Positions 1,729-12,532 of a DNA stretch of 64,000 nt are shown here, piece by piece (within the stretch, counting starts at the first letter, position 1; each line of letters starts with the position of its first letter). A program made the translations under genes and the position numbers. The notes beneath the pieces were generated by a model that did not search any database, was not told the DNA's origin, and was given only the letters and a program-made list of their open reading frames with translations. This DNA is from a phage: NCBI GenBank assembly GCA_017686895.1, contig GCA_017686895.1_4521.1; one strand, written 5' to 3'.

Positions 1729-2039
1729 GAAGCCGGGTCGCTACCGGTAAGTCGTCGGACTGATGTTCCCTGAGTAAGGACTGGTCTTAATAAATCTTTA
1801 TGATTCGTTAATATCCCCTTACATCACAGCAGAAACGGCGCACAGAATTATCGATTCGAGGAAATATCTTTGCCGTAAGCCGAGTAGCGTTTTTGACGGA
1901 ACGTTCGGATATGGTCGAGATATGGCCTTTTAAAAATATTGAGTAGCGTCAACTGCTTAATAACCGGGTTCGAATCCCGGCGTTTCGTACAAACACTTGC
2001 CTTAGCAGGTGGAACCCCGACAAGGTTACCGCAAGGCTT

Positions 2040-2068
2040 AGCCCCTTCCGAAAGGTTGGGGCTTTTTT
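2040..2068 (+). terminator. intrinsic terminator (GC hairpin + T6)
   Basis: AGCCCCTTCC-GAAA-GGTTGGGGCT followed by TTTTTT. Confidence 0.6.
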
Positions 2069-2112
2069 GCATAATAATAAATAGATAAGTTAATTAACTT
2101 AGGAAAAGTAAC

Positions 2113-2577
2113 ATGAAATCATATGCAGAATTTTTGACTGAACAATCTAGTTCAGATGTAAAAGCCGCTGCGATTGCAGCAATTCAAGCAGGTAAATATT
2201 CTTACAAAGACGCCTCTGATGAAGAACGTTTCCGTTTTATTAGAGATTTTAAAGCCGAAGGTTTTACTAATGCTAATACTGTTAGCCGAGTTTTTAAAAG
2301 CCTAGCTGCATCAGGTGAATTGTTCCAGAAAGCTACAGGTAAAGCACCAGCACCAAAAGCGGGCCCTAAAGCAGCTCAAGAAAAAAATATCGCCAAAGGA
2401 ATTATTTCTAAGTATGAAGCAATTCTTAAAGAACTTTTGGTAATCAAAACTGAAGGCCAGAAACTGGCACGAGCACATAGCTTCAAAGATAATCCTCACG
2501 CTCATAGCCTTGAGTATGTTGAAGATATCCAAAAACTTATTAAAGATCGCATTTGGTCTGCTAAACAAATCAAATAA
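2113..2577 (+). CDS. internal head protein (IP-like) with capsid-targeting leader
   Basis: N-terminus MKSYAEFLTE matches the T4 IPII/IPIII leader MKTYQEF..E cleaved by the prohead protease; own RBS and downstream terminator. Confidence 0.65.
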   Translation: MKSYAEFLTEQSSSDVKAAAIAAIQAGKYSYKDASDEERFRFIRDFKAEGFTNANTVSRVFKSLAASGELFQKATGKAPAPKAGPKAAQEKNIAKGIISKYEAILKELLVIKTEGQKLARAHSFKDNPHAHSLEYVEDIQKLIKDRIWSAKQIK

Positions 2578-2584
2578 CATTCTT

Positions 2585-2612
2585 AGCCCTAGCCAAAAGG
2601 TTGGGGCTTTTT
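2585..2612 (+). terminator. intrinsic terminator
   Basis: AGCCCTAGCC-AAAA-GGTTGGGGCT then TTTTT. Confidence 0.55.
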
Positions 2613-2702
2613 AGTTTGAATCTCTCAGAGAATGCTGTTACTGATAATACCAAAGTAATAAATAATTAATAACCAACCGATAAATTATTTCAAGGATTTT
2701 AA

Positions 2703-3266
2703 ATGAAAACCTACGCCGAATTTTTAACCGAAGCAGCAAAATTACCATCTGAAGCAGATCTTACTAAAGTATTCTTCCACTTGGATCCAAAAGACCGCGG
2801 CGATTTTCTTAAGTGGAAAGCTAAAGCTATTGAAATGTATAACATCGATACTAGTTCTTTTACGATGAGTCAAGAAAATAGTTTCAATAAAGCATTTTTC
2901 AAAATTTCTAAGAAACTGGCATCTGGCACACCGGTTCCTAAATCCGCCTTAGCTACTCCTGAACGTGCACCTGTTAAAATTTCTAAGAATATGTTTGACA
3001 CTAAAAAATACGTCAATGCTTTGAATAAAGCTCTTGATGCATTGGATGATGCAAAGAAGGCAGCCCGTGATCTTCAAGACGTGTACACTGATTTTGATCG
3101 TAAAACTAAAGGTTCTATTTCAAATAGCGAACGCAATAGTGTAAGTGTTTATTCTGATAGCCTTGATGTTCTTGGCGATGCGTATACTGAAATTAAAAAT
3201 CGTATTAACACTGCATCTAAGCTAAAAGCTGCTGCCGAAGCTATAATAACTAAACTAGGTAAATAA
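2703..3266 (+). CDS. internal head protein (IP-like) with capsid-targeting leader
   Basis: N-terminus MKTYAEFLTE; 187 aa; followed by terminator. Confidence 0.65.
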   Translation: MKTYAEFLTEAAKLPSEADLTKVFFHLDPKDRGDFLKWKAKAIEMYNIDTSSFTMSQENSFNKAFFKISKKLASGTPVPKSALATPERAPVKISKNMFDTKKYVNALNKALDALDDAKKAARDLQDVYTDFDRKTKGSISNSERNSVSVYSDSLDVLGDAYTEIKNRINTASKLKAAAEAIITKLGK

Positions 3267-3272
3267 TTTTAA

Positions 3273-3299
3273 AGCCCTATCTAAATGATAGGGCTTTTT
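3273..3299 (+). terminator. intrinsic terminator
   Basis: AGCCCTATC-TAAAT-GATAGGGCT then TTTTT. Confidence 0.6.
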
Positions 3300-3431
3300 G
3301 GTATCTAGGCCTTTCCCGGCCTCTCTAGGCATCATTTAGTTTCTGCCCTTTATAATATATTATCATATCCTTTGATTTCCCCTCCCTGCCCTAGAATTCC
3401 ACAAAACTTTTTAATTTTTTTTCACAAAACT

Positions 3432-3461
3432 GTTTACATCCCTGTTCTTCCGTGGTACTAT
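3432..3461 (+). promoter_or_regulatory. sigma70-type early promoter (approximate coordinates)
   Basis: GTTTAC -35, about 18 bp spacer, TGnTACTAT extended -10. Confidence 0.5.
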
Positions 3462-3503
3462 AAAACTATCAACTACCGATACAGAAAAACCTTGGAGAAT
3501 GAA

Positions 3504-3767
3504 ATGGATAATTACGGTGAACTGTTCAACTTCTTTATGAAATGCGTTCCAGACGATTTCGGACGTACGGTGAATGATATTAAAGTTATTGGACCTGACC
3601 ATCCGATGTTTGAAACTTACGCAGTAATGGGTAATGAAGACGGACAATGGTATACTGTAAAGGTTGTGATTAATATGTTCGCAGCAGAAGGTTATGTTAA
3701 ACTGTCTTCTAAAGTTTACCATGATAATGTCGAAATCGCTGAAGAATATTTCGATAATATGAAATAA
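3504..3767 (+). CDS. hypothetical protein
   Basis: Track ORF 3372..3767; internal ATG at 3504 preceded by GGAGA RBS. Confidence 0.45.
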   Translation: MDNYGELFNFFMKCVPDDFGRTVNDIKVIGPDHPMFETYAVMGNEDGQWYTVKVVINMFAAEGYVKLSSKVYHDNVEIAEEYFDNMK

Positions 3768-3824
3768 ATGCGTACATGGGCTTATGATTGAGATATTATG
3801 AGCCCTATTAATGAGGAGAATATT

Positions 3825-4130
3825 ATGAGTCTTTATACTGAACTGAATAAAAAATCTGAAGAATCTGCTGAAACCATTTTTAAAAACGTGCAAAAGCGTA
3901 TTTTAGAAAAGATGTATAACGCTGCATCTAAAGGTGAAAAATCTTGCCAGTTTCCGATGAGGTGTTCTTCAGATTTATGCGCAAATACTGTTGAATGGCT
4001 GGAAAGTGAAGGTCTTACGGTAGAGAAAAACCCGGCGTCTTCTATTGATGGCGAATCATATATTAGTATTTCTTGGGATAAACCACGTATGAATGAAGGA
4101 CACTACAAGTTGTTAAGTTGGAAAAATTAA
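3825..4130 (+). CDS. hypothetical protein
   Basis: ATG at 3825 preceded by GAGGAG RBS within track ORF 3798..4130. Confidence 0.45.
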   Translation: MSLYTELNKKSEESAETIFKNVQKRILEKMYNAASKGEKSCQFPMRCSSDLCANTVEWLESEGLTVEKNPASSIDGESYISISWDKPRMNEGHYKLLSWKN

Positions 4131-4198
4131 AAATAATGATGTACAAACACCAATGATGGTGATACTATAGGACTTATCAACTACAGAGGAGAAACAAA

Positions 4199-4426
4199 AT
4201 GGCTAAAGTTAGTATTGATGTCGTTGATTATGAATACACCGAAGAAGTTATTCGCAACCGACACCCTGAAGTTCGTATCGATTCAGCCCAAGATTCCAAG
4301 TTTTGGACAACTGAGCTTAATCTGAGTGGTCCTTATGAAGCTGTTAAGAAGTTCATGGTTGAAGAATACTGCGAAGGCATGCACCCAGAAGACGCCGAGT
4401 TTTATGTCAATTTGATTAAAAAATAA
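4199..4426 (+). CDS. hypothetical protein
   Basis: 75-aa ORF with AGAGGAGAA RBS. Confidence 0.5.
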   Translation: MAKVSIDVVDYEYTEEVIRNRHPEVRIDSAQDSKFWTTELNLSGPYEAVKKFMVEEYCEGMHPEDAEFYVNLIKK

Positions 4427-4474
4427 TTTACAAACTCTTGAGAGCAGAGTATAATGCTCTCGTTGGATAATAAA
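4427..4474 (+). repeat. promoter cassette copy 1 (approximate coordinates)
   Basis: ACAAACTCTTGAGAGCAGAGTATAATGCTCTCGTTGGATAATAAA; near-identical copy at about 33837..33882; palindrome GAGAGCA/TGCTCTC flanks the TATAAT. Confidence 0.6.
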
Positions 4475-4496
4475 CCACCAATTGAAAGGTAATAAT

Positions 4497-5090
4497 ATGA
4501 ACACACTGAAGAAACTTGTTGAATTCATCCGCACTAAACTGGGTACTGCTATGGCTAAAAATCTGACTGTCGAAGAACAGTATAACGCAGCCGCAGATAA
4601 GTTGATTACCCAAATCAAAGAACTAAAAACGGCTTCTGTTAAATCTATTAATGAAGAAAAACGTATTCGCGAACTTGTTAATGAAAAGAACAAGCAAGCC
4701 GCTTCTAAGGAACGTGAAATTCGTAAGCTCCTGGCTGAAGGACAAGATGTTACCATGCATGCTAAGCTTGGTCTTCTGTATCGTCGAACTGCCGAACAAC
4801 TTAATACAAAAGCTGACGGTTATGCCGCTATGCGAATTGAAATTGCTCGTAAGGTGGTTGAACTTGATGATGCTCGTCAGAATCTGGCAATCAAACTCGA
4901 ATACATTCGTGAAACTCGAGCAGCCAATGCCCTTGGTATCTCTACGGCTGATGATGTGATTGAAATTGCTGCACTGACTAAGGTTGATATCGAAGACACT
5001 CTGACTCGTGTTGAAACGTTCAATGGCACTCCAGCCGGTGTCGAAACCACTTCTGCTGATGTACAAGAATATATTAACTCTTTGAAATAA
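4497..5090 (+). CDS. hypothetical coiled-coil protein
   Basis: ATG at 4497 within track ORF 4482..5090; heptad-rich, charged sequence. Confidence 0.5.
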
Positions 5091-5098
5091 AATAATAC

Positions 5099-5120
5099 GG
5101 AGGACTCCGGTCCTCCTTTT
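5099..5120 (+). terminator. intrinsic terminator
   Basis: GGAGGAC-TCCG-GTCCTCC then TTTT. Confidence 0.65.
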
Positions 5121-5139
5121 GGATAATAAAGGAGTTAAC

Positions 5140-5736
5140 ATGCGAAACCAAAATAATGATATTGACTCAATGTTCGAAGAGTTCCGAGATAAGGTAAATC
5201 CACCTACGTCTTTAGTTGATTCATTACGATATGTTGCAACCGGACGTAAATGGTACTGGTCATCTTCTTATGAGACAACTGAATATGCAAATAACCGAAA
5301 ATCTTTATTAGCCCCAGGTATCATGATTAATGATATCGGAGCTATTGCTAAACTAGTTGCAGACCATGATATTAGATTCACTGATTTCGTTGCTCCTACG
5401 TGGTCTGTTTGTTGTTTAAACACTGAATGGGAATATATCAGCGAACGCTCTGAAGATTATTATGGTTTTAGAGATAAGCTTCTGAGGTCTAATATGTTTT
5501 ATATCGATACAGAAGTTCTAGTCGATAATAAAAAATACTACTTTACGTTAATCGTCGATTCTGAAACTATGTATGAAGGCAAGCCTTTGCTTAAGAGAGT
5601 TGATGCTTTAAGTGCTATTGATGCGCTTTATGAAACTATGGTTGTTAGTCCTAATTTCACTAACAATTTAATCCTTGAGCAATTTATTATGGAATGTAGA
5701 GAATATGTCAAAGCCAACCCTATACATGCCAAGTAA
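5140..5736 (+). CDS. hypothetical protein with EQFIMECRE motif near C-terminus
   Basis: ATG at 5140 after AAAGGAG RBS; C-terminal region carries the ExF(I/V)xECR tail shared with four downstream genes. Confidence 0.5.
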   Translation: MRNQNNDIDSMFEEFRDKVNPPTSLVDSLRYVATGRKWYWSSSYETTEYANNRKSLLAPGIMINDIGAIAKLVADHDIRFTDFVAPTWSVCCLNTEWEYISERSEDYYGFRDKLLRSNMFYIDTEVLVDNKKYYFTLIVDSETMYEGKPLLKRVDALSAIDALYETMVVSPNFTNNLILEQFIMECREYVKANPIHAK

Positions 5737-6100
5737 GCCCTGGGCGTATGAATACAAGCGTAAATTAATCCCAAATGAAGTACTATTTGGCCCTATTTTA
5801 GCTTTAGCATTTTTAATCTTTATGATTATAGGAGCCGTTTTAGATTCTAGTGAAGTTATATCGTCTGATGCAGCATTTTCATTAATGTTCGTCGCACCAC
5901 TTATTGTACCGTTTTTATTAATGCCTATTAACTGGATGGGATATTGGTACCAAGGACGTCATCACAGGGCCCGATTAAGAGAATGGAAAGTTCAGTGCGC
6001 AAAAGCCCAAGCTCAGTATGATGAAGCTGTTAAAAAGTATGAATATGAAGAAGCTATGGAATTCGTTAAGGAAATAAGATGCAAAAGCCTTAACTCTTAA
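5705..6100 (+). CDS. small membrane protein with EFVKEIRCK tail
   Basis: Two predicted TM helices (LFGPILALAFLIFMIIGAVL, FSLMFVAPLIVPFLLMPINW); start chosen at ATG 5705 (track start 5675 is TTG). Confidence 0.4.
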   Translation: MSKPTLYMPSKPWAYEYKRKLIPNEVLFGPILALAFLIFMIIGAVLDSSEVISSDAAFSLMFVAPLIVPFLLMPINWMGYWYQGRHHRARLREWKVQCAKAQAQYDEAVKKYEYEEAMEFVKEIRCKSLNS

Positions 6101-6141
6101 CCGTATGGCCTTCTCTTGGTGAGAACATTCTAATTTTTATT

Positions 6142-6438
6142 ATGAGTATTGGCATGGGATTTGCCTTTGGATTAGTTGGATTTATTATTGACGGCGTTGT
6201 GTTAGGATTTATAGGGAACACTGGTGGATTCACAGATCAATGGCAGGACTTACGGTATACCCAAGCCTTTGCATCCATCGCATCATTTTGTACTGTAGTC
6301 TATTTTTACTACAATTTTATAAACCATAACAAGAAAAATAAAAAAGTTTACGCTTCTCAAATGATTAGTTATAATGAACTCCTAGCTAGACGTGAAAATG
6401 AAACAATCGAAAACTTTATTAAGGAATGTAGAAAATGA
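6142..6438 (+). CDS. small membrane protein with ENFIKECRK tail
   Basis: Hydrophobic N-terminal half; ends ENFIKECRK. Confidence 0.5.
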   Translation: MSIGMGFAFGLVGFIIDGVVLGFIGNTGGFTDQWQDLRYTQAFASIASFCTVVYFYYNFINHNKKNKKVYASQMISYNELLARRENETIENFIKECRK

Positions 6439-6740
6439 GTAAGATTATTGAAATTAAAGTACCAGAGTTTAATGATGCCAAATCCGCTTCAGATGCAATT
6501 TATAAACTTCTGAATCAAGCTGAACGTATCGAAGAAGAAGCTACAAAGATTGCAGACCAATATGCAGTATCGTTTTCTGTAGGTGATTATGGTAGCGGTC
6601 GTACTTATTATCCTAAGGGTGAAATCGTATCCCAGTGGATGAAAGATGAAATTGAAAATAATGGCGGCGATGTTAAGCGTGAAGGTAATGGATACGTTAT
6701 TACTGAAGGTGCTTGGGTTTCATCTTCTGCGTTGTGCTAA
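6435..6740 (+). CDS. small protein, WVSSS-C tail family member 1
   Basis: Ends GAWVSSSALC; ATGA overlap with upstream gene. Confidence 0.5.
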   Translation: MSKIIEIKVPEFNDAKSASDAIYKLLNQAERIEEEATKIADQYAVSFSVGDYGSGRTYYPKGEIVSQWMKDEIENNGGDVKREGNGYVITEGAWVSSSALC

Positions 6741-6749
6741 GGAATCATT

Positions 6750-7022
6750 ATGTCTAAAGAACAAACCGAACTGGCTGAAGCTGTAGCAAAAATCTATGCA
6801 GTTATTGAGGCTGCCAAAGAAATTGCTGATAAACAAAACACAACATTCGACTTGTATCCAGCTTATGGTATGGGTGGAACGTATTATTCTCCTGGATTCT
6901 TGAAAAAAGAACTTGAGCATTATACCGAACAAGGCAATCCGAATTGGGCCACTGTCAACCAACACTCATATTACACCAGCCTCGAATCAGGTGGTTGGGT
7001 TGCATCTTCTATGGAATGCTAA
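6750..7022 (+). CDS. small protein, WVSSS-C tail family member 2
   Basis: Ends GGWVASSMEC; preceded by TAAGGAATCATTATG junction. Confidence 0.5.
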   Translation: MSKEQTELAEAVAKIYAVIEAAKEIADKQNTTFDLYPAYGMGGTYYSPGFLKKELEHYTEQGNPNWATVNQHSYYTSLESGGWVASSMEC

Positions 7023-7031
7023 GGAAATCAT

Positions 7032-7229
7032 ATGTCTCGTGAATTAGATTGTGCTGTACGTACGGCAGTAGCTGCTCTGGAAAACCTGTTCCAAATTGCA
7101 ACAGAAGAACGCGAAGAAGTTACATTATGGATTGAAGATAACGCAGGTCTGAATCTCCAGGACGCGATCTCATTATCCCACAATAGTATCACTGTTCAAG
7201 GCTGGGTATCATCTAGTTATTCTTGCTAA
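7032..7229 (+). CDS. small protein, WVSSS-C tail family member 3
   Basis: Ends QGWVSSSYSC; preceded by TAAGGAAATCATATG junction. Confidence 0.5.
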   Translation: MSRELDCAVRTAVAALENLFQIATEEREEVTLWIEDNAGLNLQDAISLSHNSITVQGWVSSSYSC

Positions 7230-7233
7230 AACA

Positions 7234-7263
7234 GTTTACAACAAGATAGGGCTATGTTATAGT
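7234..7263 (+). promoter_or_regulatory. early promoter inside a palindrome (approximate coordinates)
   Basis: GTTTAC, 18 bp spacer, TGTTATAGT; -10 flanked by ATAGGGCTA / TAGTCCTAT inverted repeat. Confidence 0.55.
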
Positions 7264-7291
7264 AGTCCTATCAAATTAAATGGAGACAACA

Positions 7292-7532
7292 ATGGTTTAT
7301 TACGAAAGTATCGGAACCGAAGTAGTTGCTAAAACTATTACTCGTGAAAAGTTTGCAAAGATATTCGATATGCGTTATAAAAAAATCTGAACACAAAGGC
7401 ATCCGATTCGAAGATGCGCACTGTACAATTTGCCCTTATAATGAAGACATAAACGGCACAATCGTTCCATTGGTAGAGGCTTCACATGACGACCTCTGGG
7501 ATGAATATAATATCGCATGTCGCGAAATTTAA
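7292..7532 (+). pseudogene. small Cys/His-containing protein gene interrupted by a frameshift at an A7 tract
   Basis: ATG 7292 with good RBS reads 31 codons into A7 run (7379..7385) then stops at 7388..7390; the +1 frame continues as track ORF 7326..7532 (SEHKGIRFEDAHCTICPYNEDINGT...). Confidence 0.4.
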
Positions 7533-7557
7533 GTAATCTAAATTCGAGGAAAATATT

Positions 7558-8514
7558 ATGATGTTAGTTATTGGTTCTCGTGCACTTCACTATCACGGTC
7601 TTATTGATTCTAGCGCTATCAAAAATAGTGATTGGGACTTTATTGCGGACCAATGTTCTTGGAATGCATTCAAAAATCAAATGATGGGTGTATATGTTCA
7701 CCAAGATAACCCTGGTGTCCAAGTTTTCAAATGTTTCCATAATGGACGCGAAACTCATTTTGAAGCATACATCGTTCCGGCTATCACTAACGTTCGCGAA
7801 CTAGTCGGTGAACTCACTCCTGAAGATTTCACGTCTTCTTATGACCTTTTAAAATACGCCAAGAAAAATTTGACTAAAGACCGTTTGAACGGGTTTTACT
7901 GGGCAACTCCTGAGATATGTCTTGCAATTAAGATGTCTCATCGTTTCAAGAAAAATAATCCATTCTTTTTAAAGACTATGAACCATATTCAGTATCTTCG
8001 TGGTAAAGGTGTTACACTGGACGATGAACTTACTGAAATTATGCTGAAACGCCAGAAAGAAACCTTGAACTATGCTCACCCAGTTCTTGACACTTCTAAA
8101 AGCGCATTCTTTAAAGATGACATCTATACGTATGACCATGATACTATTCACGAAGCCATTGCACTAACAGACCGTCCAGCGTATACATTTTATATGAAAG
8201 ATGGTTCTGAAGTCATGACCTCACGCGAGAAGTTCGAATCATTACCAGAAATGGTCAAATTAGCCGGCGTATACGAAGAATCATGTGTACTAGCGTTAGA
8301 ACGTTCTCAGATTCCTAATAACTTTGAAATCCATCCACGTGATAGTTTTATGATGGCATTAGAAAAAGTCTGTACTTCAATCACGTCAGGCTGGTTCCGT
8401 GAATACGCTTGGGAAAACTACAGCAAAGTTGTAAGTATGTACCAAAGCTTAGGACATGACGATTATGTAAAACGTTTTAAACAAAATTTCCATATGGTAA
8501 AACCTTTCAAATAA
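7558..8514 (+). CDS. hypothetical protein
   Basis: 318-aa ORF, ATG-ATG start after GAGGAAAA RBS; N-terminal IGSRALHYHG...DWDF weakly resembles a nucleotidyltransferase motif. Confidence 0.55.
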   Translation: MMLVIGSRALHYHGLIDSSAIKNSDWDFIADQCSWNAFKNQMMGVYVHQDNPGVQVFKCFHNGRETHFEAYIVPAITNVRELVGELTPEDFTSSYDLLKYAKKNLTKDRLNGFYWATPEICLAIKMSHRFKKNNPFFLKTMNHIQYLRGKGVTLDDELTEIMLKRQKETLNYAHPVLDTSKSAFFKDDIYTYDHDTIHEAIALTDRPAYTFYMKDGSEVMTSREKFESLPEMVKLAGVYEESCVLALERSQIPNNFEIHPRDSFMMALEKVCTSITSGWFREYAWENYSKVVSMYQSLGHDDYVKRFKQNFHMVKPFK

Positions 8515-8526
8515 TTTCGCAAAACT

Positions 8527-8556
8527 GTTTACACAATTATAGGACTATGTTATAGT
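8527..8556 (+). promoter_or_regulatory. early promoter inside a palindrome (approximate coordinates)
   Basis: GTTTAC, 18 bp, TGTTATAGT; flanked by ATAGGACTA / TAGTCCTAT. Confidence 0.55.
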
Positions 8557-8584
8557 AGTCCTATTAAAACATGAGGAGAATATT

Positions 8585-8890
8585 ATGAAATTAGGCGAAA
8601 CCAACCGAATTGGTCTTTTAACTATATTTGTATCACTTTTTTACGTAGCTCTTTCTGTTGCAGTATTACAAAAGGCTTACGATATGGATGGTGTTCCTGG
8701 TTTTGTATTCTTATCACCATTTTTATTATTCGTCGGGGCTTTGTTATTATATGCCACGACTAGTTTTGACCATAACGTCTGGGTTAATTATAAATGTAAA
8801 TTGTCTGAAGAAGAACACGCAGAAGCTCGTAAAAAAGCTATTGAATCTACCAATCTAGAAAATTTCATTAAAGAATGTCGAGGAAAATAA
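8585..8890 (+). CDS. small membrane protein with ENFIKECRGK tail
   Basis: Two hydrophobic segments; C-terminal LENFIKECRGK. Confidence 0.5.
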   Translation: MKLGETNRIGLLTIFVSLFYVALSVAVLQKAYDMDGVPGFVFLSPFLLFVGALLLYATTSFDHNVWVNYKCKLSEEEHAEARKKAIESTNLENFIKECRGK

Positions 8891-8891
8891 T

Positions 8892-9578
8892 ATGAATAGT
8901 TCTAAAGTGTTTAATAGTCAAGCTCGTGCAGTAGGTGGTTTTGCTCATAACGTACAAAATGACCAAATCAAAAATGAACCAATGTTCTTTAACTGTGATT
9001 TGAGTTTTGCTTGGGATAACGGCGGTCCTATTACTCGTAGCTTTATTGCCAATCTCCCAATTGATTGGACTAATCAACATGTTGTATTTGATTCTCGGGT
9101 TCATATGCTGATGCCTGGTTGGTATCCTGCTATTCCTGGATATCACCATGACGATGTTCCTCGCCCTGATATTCCAGTCGGCCAACACTTTATTACTGCA
9201 GGACAACCTGACTATGATAACCCTCGTTACCATTCTGAACATATTCTTGGTCTTGTTAACGCTGACGTGTGTCCTACTCATTTTGCAACAGGAACTGCAG
9301 AGTTCAGTCAGATTCCTGATGGCGAACTTATCTATCGCCAATGGCACAAAGAAGTCCTCGAAAAAATTGAAAAAGGTGAACTAGAGAAATGGGAAGCTCC
9401 AGACCGTACTCTTCTTCAGTTTGATTGGCAAACATGGCACACTGGTTCTCGTGCAATTAGTAATGGATGGCGTTGGTTCGGACGTGTATCTCGTAATACA
9501 GACCGAGTTAAAAAGATTACCAATGAAATTCGTGTCAATGCCCAAGTTTATCTGGAATTCCCTATGGAAGGCTGGTAA
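8892..9578 (+). CDS. putative Fe(II)/2-oxoglutarate-dependent oxygenase-like protein
   Basis: Candidate HxD (GYHHDD), distal His (WHTG) and RxS (RVS) in the spacing typical of the 2OG oxygenase fold; motif-level only. Confidence 0.4.
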   Translation: MNSSKVFNSQARAVGGFAHNVQNDQIKNEPMFFNCDLSFAWDNGGPITRSFIANLPIDWTNQHVVFDSRVHMLMPGWYPAIPGYHHDDVPRPDIPVGQHFITAGQPDYDNPRYHSEHILGLVNADVCPTHFATGTAEFSQIPDGELIYRQWHKEVLEKIEKGELEKWEAPDRTLLQFDWQTWHTGSRAISNGWRWFGRVSRNTDRVKKITNEIRVNAQVYLEFPMEGW

Positions 9579-10069
9579 TGATTAACAAAATATATTGGTC
9601 TAATATTGACGACGGCAATGAAGGTATTTCATACTATTCAGTAGATTGGACAGGATGTCCATCCTACTTAGTGAAACGTATTTGTCAAGAATTTAAAATC
9701 GACCAGCCAGCAGGTATTATCGTGAACAGATACATTAATGGATATCAACCTATCGATGAAGTAATACGAACAACTCAAGCTGATCTTGAAAAGTTTTTCA
9801 ATAAGTGTCAATGGATAACAGGATGGATTATATTTGTACCGTCGGTATGGTTTTTTAGTACTAAAGTAAGTGCCTTTGCCATACCAGATATTATCGCTAT
9901 CTTATTAGCATCTACTATCGTAAGTATTATTGGTGGTATTATTGGTGGAGGTACTATAGGCATCATTATTAATCTTGTTAAAAGTAGTTTACAGGAACGT
10001 AAAGACAAGATAAAGGCCAAGAATAATGAAGTTGAACGTTTTATTACCGAATGCAGGAATTTGAGATGA
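9578..10069 (+). CDS. membrane protein with ERFITECRNLR tail
   Basis: TAATG overlap start; Gly/Ile-rich TM segments; conserved tail. Confidence 0.5.
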   Translation: MINKIYWSNIDDGNEGISYYSVDWTGCPSYLVKRICQEFKIDQPAGIIVNRYINGYQPIDEVIRTTQADLEKFFNKCQWITGWIIFVPSVWFFSTKVSAFAIPDIIAILLASTIVSIIGGIIGGGTIGIIINLVKSSLQERKDKIKAKNNEVERFITECRNLR

Positions 10070-10302
10070 GTATAGCAATTTACATTAAATCAGAATCATG
10101 TGATAGTTATCTGTACACATATGATAAAGATGTGTCAGAAGAAAAAATCAAAGACGATCTTAATATGGACCTTGATTTGTTCAGTCCTATTGCAGATTAC
10201 AAACTTGCTGTCTCTAATAGTGAAAGTCCATCTAAAGAAACGCGTATTGAAGAATTTATGTCCGAATTAATGGCCAAATCATGGGACCGAGATGATGAGT
10301 AA
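10066..10302 (+). CDS. hypothetical acidic protein
   Basis: ATG 10066 overlapping upstream stop (ATGA). Confidence 0.45.
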   Translation: MSIAIYIKSESCDSYLYTYDKDVSEEKIKDDLNMDLDLFSPIADYKLAVSNSESPSKETRIEEFMSELMAKSWDRDDE

Positions 10303-10750
10303 GAAAAATAAAGTGAAAGAACTATCAGCCGGTATTATCTTCATGACAAAAGATAAAGAATTATTCATGGGTCGTGTAACTGGTTCTCGTCCTAAAGGTG
10401 CATTAGCTCATCGGTGGGATATTCCTAAAGGCCGTGTCGAACCTGGCGAATCTCCTATCGAAGCCGCTATTCGTGAATGCGAAGAAGAAACTGGGTTTAC
10501 ACAATATGACCCTGCCTTCCTGAAAGACCTAGGTGAACATCATTACTCAGACAATAAGAATATTCATCTGTTCCTATATACCATCCCTGTAGAGCACGAG
10601 CAATTCAGAAACAGTGTTTGTAATTCATATCATACATTCCCGGACGGACGACAGATTCCTGAATTTGATGCATTCGCTCTAATTAAACCTTCTCAATGGG
10701 AATATGTAATGGGCAAATCGTTATATAAGGTGCTCACTACCCTCCTATAA
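10292..10750 (+). CDS. nudE: Nudix hydrolase
   Basis: Nudix box GRVEPGESPIEAAIRECEEETGF; sits immediately upstream of lysozyme e. Confidence 0.85.
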   Translation: MMSKKNKVKELSAGIIFMTKDKELFMGRVTGSRPKGALAHRWDIPKGRVEPGESPIEAAIRECEEETGFTQYDPAFLKDLGEHHYSDNKNIHLFLYTIPVEHEQFRNSVCNSYHTFPDGRQIPEFDAFALIKPSQWEYVMGKSLYKVLTTLL

Positions 10751-10784
10751 GTAATAAATACCTCCTATAAACGTGGGAGGTATT

Positions 10785-11273
10785 ATGAATATATTTGAAA
10801 TGCTTCGTAATGACGAAGGTCTTAGACTGACTTTATACAAAGACACTGAAGGCTTTTGGACGATTGGTATAGGCCATTTAGTAACAAAGAACCCGTCTTT
10901 AGCCGTAGCTAAAGCTGAACTTGACAGAATGATCGGTCGTAAATGCAACGGTACAATTACCCTTGATGAGGCTGAAAAGCTATTTAATGAAGACGTTGAT
11001 AAAGCCGTTCGCGGAATCTTGGGTAATGCTAAACTTAAACCGGTATATGATTCTTTAGATGCGGTTCGTCGATGTGCATTGGTCAATATGGTCTTCCAAA
11101 TGGGTGTAGCAGGCGTTGCTGGTTTTACTAATTCTCTTCGTATGCTTCAACAGAAACGTTGGGATGAAGCGGCAGTAAATCTAGCTCAATCTAAATGGTA
11201 TCGTCAGACACCTAATCGCGCGAAACGCGTAATCTCAACATTTAAAACAGGAACTTGGAAAGCGTATATATGA
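10785..11273 (+). CDS. e: lysozyme (endolysin)
   Basis: [31 protein letters not shown]... nearly colinear with T4 lysozyme as I recall it; start at ATG 10785 after GGGAGG RBS. Confidence 0.95.
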
Positions 11274-11551
11274 AAACATATAGTGAATTTTTATCAGAAT
11301 CTATTCTTAACGAAGCTACTGACACATTTGCAACTAAGCTAGGTGCAGCTTTGGTTGAAGCTGAAAGTCTATTAGCACGTATTTCTGAACTTGCTAGTAA
11401 GATAGATATTCGCAAATTTGAACGTACCAGCGATATCGCTAAGCTTGAAGCCTTGTTGCGTATGTGCGATAAACCAGAGGAAATCGCTAAGAACGGCTCG
11501 CTGATGAAACAACGTCTTGAAAAATATATTTCAGGCGCTTCAGAAAAATAG
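11270..11551 (+). CDS. internal head protein (IP-like) with capsid-targeting leader
   Basis: Starts [10 protein letters not shown]; ATG overlaps lysozyme stop. Confidence 0.6.
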
Positions 11552-11609
11552 TGTTTACTTCCTCCAAGGGTTTTGATACTATACATTCATCAACTACTTG
11601 GAGGAAATT

Positions 11610-12023
11610 ATGACTCGTATCAATTTAACACTTGTTTCTGAACTGTCCGACCAACATCTTATGGCTGAGTATCGTGAATTACCACGCGTATTTGGTGCAG
11701 TCCGTAAACATGTTCAAAACGGTAAACGTGTAAAGGATTTTAAAATCTCTCCAACATTTATCTTAGGCACAGGTCACGTAACATTCTTTTACGACAAACT
11801 CGAATTTTTACGTTTACGTCAAATCGAGCTAATCGCTGAATGTTTGAAACGTGGTTTCAAAATCAAGGACACGACAGTCCAGGATATTTCCGACATCCCT
11901 GCCGAATTTCGTAATAATTATGTCCCGTCCGAAGCGTCCATTGCGATAAGTCAAGCACGCTTAGATGAAAAAATTGCTCAACGTCCGACTTGGTACAAAT
12001 ACTATGGTAAATCAATTTACTAA
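11610..12023 (+). CDS. denV: endonuclease V (pyrimidine-dimer DNA glycosylase)
   Basis: [34 protein letters not shown]... matches T4 EndoV along its length. Confidence 0.95.
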
Positions 12024-12030
12024 GGAAAAA

Positions 12031-12360
12031 ATGAAAACATATCAAGAGTTTATCACTGAAGTTACATTATCTGCGGAACAGAAAGCTGCTATCGAAGAAA
12101 GTAAAAATCCCAAAGTAACATATAAAGTAAATAGTAAAGGCGTTTTTGATGGCTTGGTTCAAGACCCTGAATTGAAAAAAGCTCTTTCTAAAACTAATGC
12201 GTACTTTGCTCCTAAATTTAACACAGCAGGTGTACTTATTGGATTGGATGTATTCAACTCTAAAGGTGTTCTATCTAATGCCTTTGGCTATGCCGCTAAC
12301 AAAATTACCAAAGCCGCATGGGAATCCAATACCAAACAAGCTCAAAAGCCTAGAGTATAA
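12031..12360 (+). CDS. internal head protein (IP-like) with capsid-targeting leader
   Basis: Starts MKTYQEFITE, the same leader as T4 IPII/IPIII. Confidence 0.6.
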   Translation: MKTYQEFITEVTLSAEQKAAIEESKNPKVTYKVNSKGVFDGLVQDPELKKALSKTNAYFAPKFNTAGVLIGLDVFNSKGVLSNAFGYAANKITKAAWESNTKQAQKPRV

Positions 12361-12532
12361 TTCTTGTCTAATAAAGGGAAACGCAACCTCTCCTTATGAA
12401 CGTCGAGTCCTCTGAGTGATGTACCTTTTCCAACCTGTAATAAGGTCGAGCGCAATGCGGTAATGGGTTTACATAGCGAGTCGAAGGACCTAACATGTGC
12501 CACGGAATGGCCCAAACCTTAAGAGAAATAAT

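Follow-up and report, generated by a model that had tools for sequence, protein, structure and literature searches.

Within 64,000 nucleotides (nt) of phage DNA (contig GCA_017686895.1_4521.1 of assembly GCA_017686895.1; the whole stretch is called the window here), four small genes encode proteins that begin with the same kind of ten-residue leader. They lie on the plus strand at 2113-2577, 2703-3266, 11270-11551 and 12031-12360 and are referred to below as genes 1 to 4. The best overall explanation, which we hold with moderate confidence, is that they are T4-type internal proteins (IPs) of a Mosigvirus, each most likely blocking a host nuclease. The window is 98-99.5% identical to genomes of Mosigvirus, the RB69-like T-even phages (e.g. 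CCU7, phiC120, ATK47, FP43, APCEc01 and PhAPEC2), and thus comes from a T-even phage of this genus.

A T4-type leader on four proteins

A first-pass annotation, made from the sequence alone, had reported that the four proteins all start with MK(S/T)Y-x-EF(L/I)(T/S)E. A six-frame translation of the whole 64 kb window bears this out: the strict motif, MK[ST]Y.EF[LI][ST]E, has four matches, each at the ATG of one of the four plus-strand open reading frames (ORFs) and none elsewhere, against a chance expectation of ~1.6e-6 (analytic) and 0 matches in 200 shuffles. Looser patterns (MK[STA][YFW].[EQD]F) gave no additional matches in the six frames of the window. Each ATG is preceded, at a distance of 6-9 nt, by a Shine-Dalgarno-like AGGA or AAGGA.

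The leaders of genes 1 (MKSYAEFLTE, 2113-2142), 2 (MKTYAEFLTE) and 4 (MKTYQEFITE) can be set beside the N-terminus of T4 IPII and IPIII, MKTYQEFIAE. The first ten residues of IPIII are enough for packaging, with residues 4 and 7 serving in targeting and residues 8 and 10 in prohead-protease cleavage (mutagenesis results summarised in PMC9026906). Since Tyr4, Phe7, Leu/Ile8 and Glu10 are kept in all four window proteins and match these essential positions, the leaders are read as the T4 capsid-targeting sequence (CTS), which they resemble in every respect visible from sequence. At that level the annotation's identification of the leader as the T4 head-targeting signal stands. The L/I-x-E sites that end the leaders are LTE in genes 1 and 2, LSE in gene 3 (followed by LNE at residues 13-15) and ITE in gene 4. 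Cleavage at the predicted sites would turn the primary products of genes 1 to 4 (154, 187, 93 and 109 residues) into mature proteins of 15.9, 19.6, 9.2 and 10.7 kDa. Those of genes 1 (144 residues, isoelectric point (pI) 9.7), 2 (177 residues, pI 9.5) and 4 (99 residues, pI 9.7) would be basic and comparable to the T4 IPs, with pI values of 9.0-9.7. From these features we consider it highly probable that all four proteins are packaged and processed.

Genomic setting

The window is collinear with the T4 region trna.3 - tRNAs - rnaD/rnaC - e.8...nudE - e - ipIII - ipII - denV, and its own order is trna.3/.2 - tRNAs - rnaD/C - [two cassettes] - e.8...nudE - e - IP - denV - IP. Genes 3 and 4 are at or adjoining the e-denV IP locus, with the lysozyme gene e at 10785-11273 (plus strand, 82% identical to T4 e) and denV, encoding endonuclease V, at 11610-12023 (plus strand, 91% identical to T4 denV). 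Genes 1 and 2 are found instead between rnaC and e.8. The upstream edge of that site is formed by homologues of rnaD and rnaC, the T4 stable RNAs of species 2 and 1 (1735-1995, plus strand). The core is almost the same as in T4, with columns of the full alignment averaging 83% identity, and a longer stretch, 1723-2067, is 92% identical to its T4 counterpart; both RNAs were missed by ARAGORN and by Rfam at the gathering threshold.

A 95-residue homologue of T4 IPI is encoded ~0.3 kb before the point where the window starts in the nearest relatives, CCU7 (L006, 1679-1966) and PhAPEC2 (L002, 36-323; PhAPEC2_140). Because the relatives carry this gene, the phage probably has at least five IPs, the fifth just outside the window.

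Two cassettes in the rnaC terminator

Compared with T4, the window has a 1.2-kb insertion (~2068-3274) exactly in the rnaC terminator. T4 has a single hairpin and no cassette at this site, whereas the window has three copies of a hairpin-plus-T-run terminator (repeat D1, plus strand) that separate two cassettes. The first copy (2037-2067, -21.3 kcal/mol, z-score -3.5) terminates the tRNA/rnaC unit and is the left edge of cassette 1; the second (2582-2612, -17.6 kcal/mol, z-score -3.2), 87% identical to the first, stands between the cassettes; and the third (3269-3299, z-score -5.0) closes cassette 2, with T4 homology resuming at 3275. Each cassette also contains a late-promoter-like motif, AATAAATA, within a second repeat (D8). 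It is found on the plus strand at 2076-2083, 37 nt 5' of the gene 1 ATG, and at 2657-2664, 46 nt 5' of the gene 2 ATG, and in both places it is a candidate promoter. The Tequatrovirus fHoEco02 has an orthologue of gene 1 at the same rnaC-terminator site. The rnaC terminator is a third cassette site, added by this work.

The direct DNA repeats between the two units are collinear and cover the terminator, the promoter-like box, the leader and a C-terminal segment. Both proteins match the profile of one family, phrog_2280, over its full length (E 3e-53 for gene 1 and 5e-53 for gene 2). AlphaFold2 models give them one plan, in which a short leader is followed by a three-helix N-terminal domain, a disordered Pro/Lys/Ala linker and a long helical hairpin. 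These models are of only moderate quality, with a mean predicted local distance difference test score of 74 for gene 1 and 67 for gene 2, because the homologue alignments are very shallow. At the level of pairwise sequence there is little to add: BLASTP found no match between the two leaderless bodies, and Smith-Waterman alignment gave z = 1.9. In hhalign, the probability was 27%; once 31%-identical relatives from exhaustive HMMER searches were included it reached 68%, with the aligned part confined to the C-terminal 21-26 residues; this profile-profile support is suggestive but weak, short of proof. Taking the shared PHROG, the predicted plan, the collinear repeats and the hhalign result together, we conclude with moderate confidence that genes 1 and 2 are probable distant paralogues that arose by tandem duplication of a cassette.

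This modifies the earlier description of the four bodies as unrelated to one another. In BLASTP and Smith-Waterman comparisons of the leaderless bodies, including those of T4 Ip1-3, no pair scored above shuffles, so that the description is correct for every pair at this level; for genes 1 and 2, the common PHROG, predicted plan and collinear repeats speak against it. None of the four proteins had an above-threshold match in Pfam or NCBIfam, and a PDB sequence search with the leaderless bodies returned nothing meaningful. Structure prediction, which the annotation had proposed as a check, revealed the domain plan common to genes 1 and 2 and gave no fold clue to a target. When searched with Foldseek against the PDB, the gene 1 model had just generic helical (ferritin-like) matches (E >= 0.4, template modelling score ~0.2-0.3). 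Against BFVD, the gene 1 and gene 2 models found only their own families and distant T4-like relatives (Serratia PS2, Yersinia fHe-Yen9-01), and neither matched the other family or a T4 IP.

Among the BFVD matches of the gene 2 model is RB69ORF149c. Gene 2 is a full-length relative of this ORF, the RB69 copy being truncated to 146 residues. Four metagenomic ORFs (P0009, P0019, P0020, P0023) contain pieces of genes 1 or 2 that are either truncated or fused to neighbours (a trna.2-like N-terminus, NudE). Together with RB69ORF149c, they point to frequent deletions around this region. Klebsiella T4-like phages (H87-H90) have in common with gene 1 only its N-terminal domain of ~60 residues, at 55-59% identity, which suggests that domains may be shuffled within the gene 1 family.

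Gene 3, a relative of Ip5

The product of gene 3 is clearly homologous to internal head proteins annotated as Ip5. It matches phrog_3499, 'internal head protein', with E 1e-45 and the Ip5 protein of fHoEco02 with 48% identity over 84 residues (E 2e-24), and the names ip5 or internal head protein are carried by many of its tblastn matches, the latter name also by its RefSeq relatives. Its second L-x-E site past the leader, SILNE|A at residue 15, falls in the alignment where the longer leader of the IPI/Ip5 type is cleaved. In Tequatrovirus, Ip5 is encoded at the ipI locus (57B-trna.4) and has the 15-residue IPI-type leader MKTFKEFATKTTITE, whereas its Mosigvirus relative lies beside e and has an IPIII-type leader. 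The likeness to Ip5 is not limited to the gene 3 sequence but extends to the overall picture, in which diverse bodies are combined with a conserved leader and cassettes are shuffled in polymorphic loci. A 1994 study by Repoila reportedly described diverse T-even internal proteins with only the leader in common, as well as the polymorphic series Ip4-Ip13.

Gene 4 and a junction within the leader

Gene 4 is assigned to phrog_3966, the family also of the neighbouring APCEc01_180. There are three leader-bearing genes 3' of denV in APCEc01, versus one in the window. The window tracks the denV flank of APCEc01 until ATGAAAA and then runs on as the third of these genes, and a crossover inside the leader codons follows from the position of this switch.

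Some minor features of this locus can be recorded here. APCEc01_179, labelled 'internal head protein' (L001, 2832-3092), is annotated in RefSeq from its second Met; a start 6 nt upstream gives the full leader MKMYQEFIIE. APCEc01_180 has an early-type promoter, GTTTACG-N17-TATAAT, in front of it. In the window, gene 4 is followed by a relatively G+C-rich non-coding spacer of ~170 nt (12361-12532), in which relatives have a small antisense ORF annotated. A structured RNA in this spacer was considered and rejected, as the fold is weaker than that of shuffles (z-score +2.2) and Rfam had no match.

Transcription

The first-pass annotation described all four genes as separately transcribed. For genes 1 and 2 the description fits, each having its own AATAAATA and being bounded by the terminators at 2037-2067, 2582-2612 and 3269-3299. 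It does not fit the other two. Gene 3 begins within the end of the lysozyme gene, its ATG sharing letters with the TGA stop of e (ATGA), and a further AATAAATA (10753-10760, plus strand), located 5' of e where T4 has two TATAAATA late promoters, is likely the promoter for both e and gene 3. Gene 4 starts 7 nt past the denV stop codon; neither a terminator nor a good late motif separates the two, and denV itself has an early-type promoter, GTTTAC...TATAC, on its 5' side. A perfect TATAAATA was found 5' of none of the four genes. This octamer occurs only twice on both strands of the window (17364 and 61551), as opposed to 8.5 occurrences expected from shuffles, and is thus depleted in this mostly early-gene region.

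Distribution

The distribution of the four genes was assessed by tblastn of the leaderless bodies against 50,697 phage records. The gene 1 body was found in 512 records, 72 of them at >=95% identity and ~400, in Tequatrovirus, at 60-80%; all 40 records listed for it have the gene as 'hypothetical protein' or leave it unannotated. The gene 2 body has matches in 165 records, belonging to both Mosigvirus and Tequatrovirus, and nearly all are at >=95% identity; such conservation across two genera argues for recent exchange. For gene 3, about half of the 497 records match at ~47%, and many are labelled Ip5 or internal head protein. Gene 4 is the rarest of the four (91 records), and an internal-protein name is given in none of the 30 records listed. 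Since no Ip or internal-protein name occurs among the records listed for genes 1, 2 and 4, three of the four families are newly flagged here. Presence of the genes is patchy: many Mosigviruses have no gene 4, most have no gene 2, and T4 lacks genes 1, 2 and 4.

Proposed role and alternatives

Under the explanation we favour, the N-terminal ten residues would act as the CTS, binding the protein to the scaffolding core during prohead assembly. A gp21-type prohead protease would then cut after the Glu of L/I-x-E, at residue 10 in each of the four and, in gene 3, probably at residue 15 as well. Both the gp21 protease and the scaffolding core are to be expected in a member of the Tevenvirinae; the head genes lie beyond the window. 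The mature proteins of 9-20 kDa would stay alongside the DNA in the head and be injected together with it, and in the new cell each would most likely bind and block one variant of the nucleases that attack sugar-modified DNA (type IV enzymes of the GmrSD or BrxU type), as T4 Ip1-3 do. Genes 1 and 2 would be self-contained cassettes of terminator, late-type promoter, leader, body and terminator, derived by tandem duplication inside the rnaC terminator, with gene 3 being expressed on the lysozyme transcript and gene 4 on that of denV. Conserved leader and terminator sequences would provide the recombination joints by which cassettes are moved in and out.

The functional part of this proposal is an analogy with published work. 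T4 Ip1, Ip2 and Ip3 are inhibitors of type IV nucleases, each acting on a different GmrSD, and all genes in both Ip loci are predicted to target GmrSD variants (Silas 2025, PMC12373910). IPIII is required on ECOR17 and is active without its leader when supplied in the host (Srikant 2022, PMC9391042). Mosigvirus DNA carries arabinosylated 5-hydroxycytosine and not glucosylated 5-hydroxymethylcytosine (PMC13390438; PMC13326640). RB69 DNA is cleaved by GmrSD enzymes (PMC6024577) and Mosigvirus DNA by BrxU (PMC13390438), and RB69 IPI shields from some enzymes of the GmrSD family (PMC6024577; PMC13390438; PMC13326640). An injected anti-defence role is the published expectation for this class of protein (PMC3012670; PMC12373910), so that the suggestion of candidate injected anti-defence effectors in the first-pass annotation was reasonable; any newness that it may have implied is not borne out, as the interpretation is already in print (Silas 2025). 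By this analogy the balance tips slightly towards an anti-defence role for the four proteins. That GmrSD-type nucleases specifically are their targets is a more tentative proposal, to which we give somewhat less than an even chance.

The likeness to T4 Ip1-3 includes the CTS, the L/I-x-E site, small size, mostly basic composition, a non-essential appearance, location in the e/denV and tRNA region, and the expected role as injected inhibitors of modification-dependent nucleases. There are also differences. The T4 proteins belong to PHROGs 4363, 7857 and 5341, versus 2280, 3499 and 3966 in the window. The T4 order is e-ipIII-ipII-denV, as against e-IP-denV-IP, and two of the window genes occupy the rnaC site that is empty in T4. 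T4 DNA is glucosylated, whereas that of this phage's group is arabinosylated. A parallel can also be drawn with anti-CRISPR and anti-restriction hotspots, where small, unrelated and patchily distributed genes are stacked at fixed sites and exchanged among related phages (analogy in PMC12373910). Unlike in those hotspots, the shared element here is not merely a common promoter or regulator but an address tag at the protein level, which would deliver a pre-made product with the DNA.

Several observations weigh against the explanation we favour. The bodies have no detectable sequence or fold resemblance to Ip1, Ip2 or Ip3, nor any to solved or annotated structures; because Ip1-3 are non-homologous among themselves, the missing homology to them is not informative on function. 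The mature gene 3 protein, with a pI of ~6.3, is near neutral and hence non-basic. The motif AATAAATA differs at one position from the T4 late promoter TATAAATA, and its activity is a prediction. For gene 4, the best late-promoter match is TACAAATA, and the gene sits behind an early-type promoter. Gene 1 has a ratio of nonsynonymous to synonymous substitutions (dN/dS) of ~0.09 relative to its Tequatrovirus orthologue, a rough value because dS is near saturation, and the same as that of neighbour genes, indicating purifying selection. Being present in ~500 genomes, it has the look of a conserved accessory gene and not of one evolving fast in an arms race. Finally, no data on virion proteomics, cleavage or phenotype came to light for the four proteins in literature searches. 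Searches by locus tag returned nothing, and Petrov 2010 and a T4 omics paper are silent on IPs.

Three alternatives can be weighed. In the first, the proteins would be injected effectors of anti-defence or host takeover with targets other than GmrSD-type nucleases, such as other modification-dependent systems, modified-cytosine glycosylases, or unrelated immunity or host functions. The lack of similarity to Ip1-3 is in line with such targets, and the set of attackers may differ for Mosigvirus because its DNA carries arabinosylated 5-hydroxycytosine instead of a glucosylated base (PMC13390438; PMC13326640). To judge from the titles of papers, further defences against T-even modified DNA are emerging in the literature, and packaged T4 Alt is an example of injected cargo with a non-restriction target (PMC9026906). 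However, all three of the characterised CTS cargo proteins from IP loci hit GmrSD variants even though they are unrelated in sequence (PMC12373910), and the DNA of RB69 and other Mosigviruses is a substrate for GmrSD or BrxU (PMC13390438; PMC6024577). On balance we rate targets outside GmrSD as rather improbable.

The second alternative, that the proteins are packaged but mainly structural, is a little less probable still. They would in this case neutralise DNA charge, organise the packed DNA or aid assembly of the core or head, as suggested for T4 IPIII, mutants of which show slower head assembly and a smaller burst; lysines of internal proteins touch DNA phosphates (PMC9026906; PMC3012670). 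The products of genes 1, 2 and 4 are Lys-rich as well as basic, those of genes 1 and 2 are predicted to be long and helical, with two domains and a Pro/Lys/Ala linker, unlike the compact IPI*, and the wide conservation of gene 1 under purifying selection would also suit such a role. Against it, the patchy presence of genes 2 and 4 and the absence of genes 1, 2 and 4 from T4 imply that none of them is needed for head structure. T4 mutants without all three IPs are viable (PMC9026906), and IPIII, the T4 protein with an assembly phenotype, still proved to be a GmrSD inhibitor (PMC12373910; PMC9391042).

The third alternative, that in one or more genes (most plausibly gene 4) the leader is a recombination scar on a protein that is made early, stays unpackaged and acts in the producing cell or is non-functional, draws on the crossover within the gene 4 leader codons, on the position of this gene behind the denV early-type promoter with no late-type promoter of its own, and on the truncated or fused derivatives of genes 1 and 2 in metagenomes and RB69, but we consider it very improbable, given that the gene 4 leader is intact at all four key residues and that the ORF shows 97-100% conservation across the 77 records with matches of >=95% identity. 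In addition, by sequence inspection T4 ipII and ipIII have early-type promoter sequences on their 5' side and no perfect TATAAATA, yet their products are packaged at ~360 copies per head (PMC9026906), so that early-type signals are no argument against packaging.

Returning to the reading of the four proteins as injected nuclease blockers, its consequences would be practical as well as conceptual. The catalogue of pre-made, co-injected anti-restriction factors would grow from the glucosylated phages represented by T4 to the arabinosyl-cytosine phages represented by Mosigvirus, a genus collected for therapy and known to be cut by GmrSD/BrxU enzymes, and the proteins would serve directly as probes for the host nucleases that they counter. 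As a rule for annotation, the leader motif is simple and would give hundreds of 'hypothetical proteins' a new label, and the cassette anatomy offers a concrete view of how genes may move via terminator and leader recombination joints. The gain is nevertheless incremental, because diverse cargo, a conserved leader and an arms race against type IV restriction form an established concept. What is added consists of three families without internal-protein annotation in the records listed, the rnaC-terminator site, evidence for tandem duplication of genes 1 and 2, and the junction within the leader. A bolder extension, possible but doubtful, is that the phrog_2280 pair represents an unrecognised, widespread class of two-domain helical T-even injected proteins, housed at a third IP locus that arose when cassettes entered the rnaC terminator. 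In arabinosyl-cytosine phages, this class would, together with gene 4, neutralise defences outside the range of Ip1-3 (such as UTI89-type GmrSD, BrxU or non-GmrSD modified-cytosine systems).

Other features of the window

Two further groups of small ORFs are found between the cassettes and the lysozyme gene. At 6435-7229 there are three tandem ORFs of 101, 90 and 65 residues, all ending in G-x-W-V-(S/A)-S-S-x-x-C; they resemble tandem paralogues in which a C-terminal Cys motif is conserved. Four small membrane-like ORFs (5675-6100, 6142-6438, 8585-8890 and 9578-10069) have the C-terminal motif E-(N/R)-F-I-(K/T)-E-C-R, in a looser form in the first of them.

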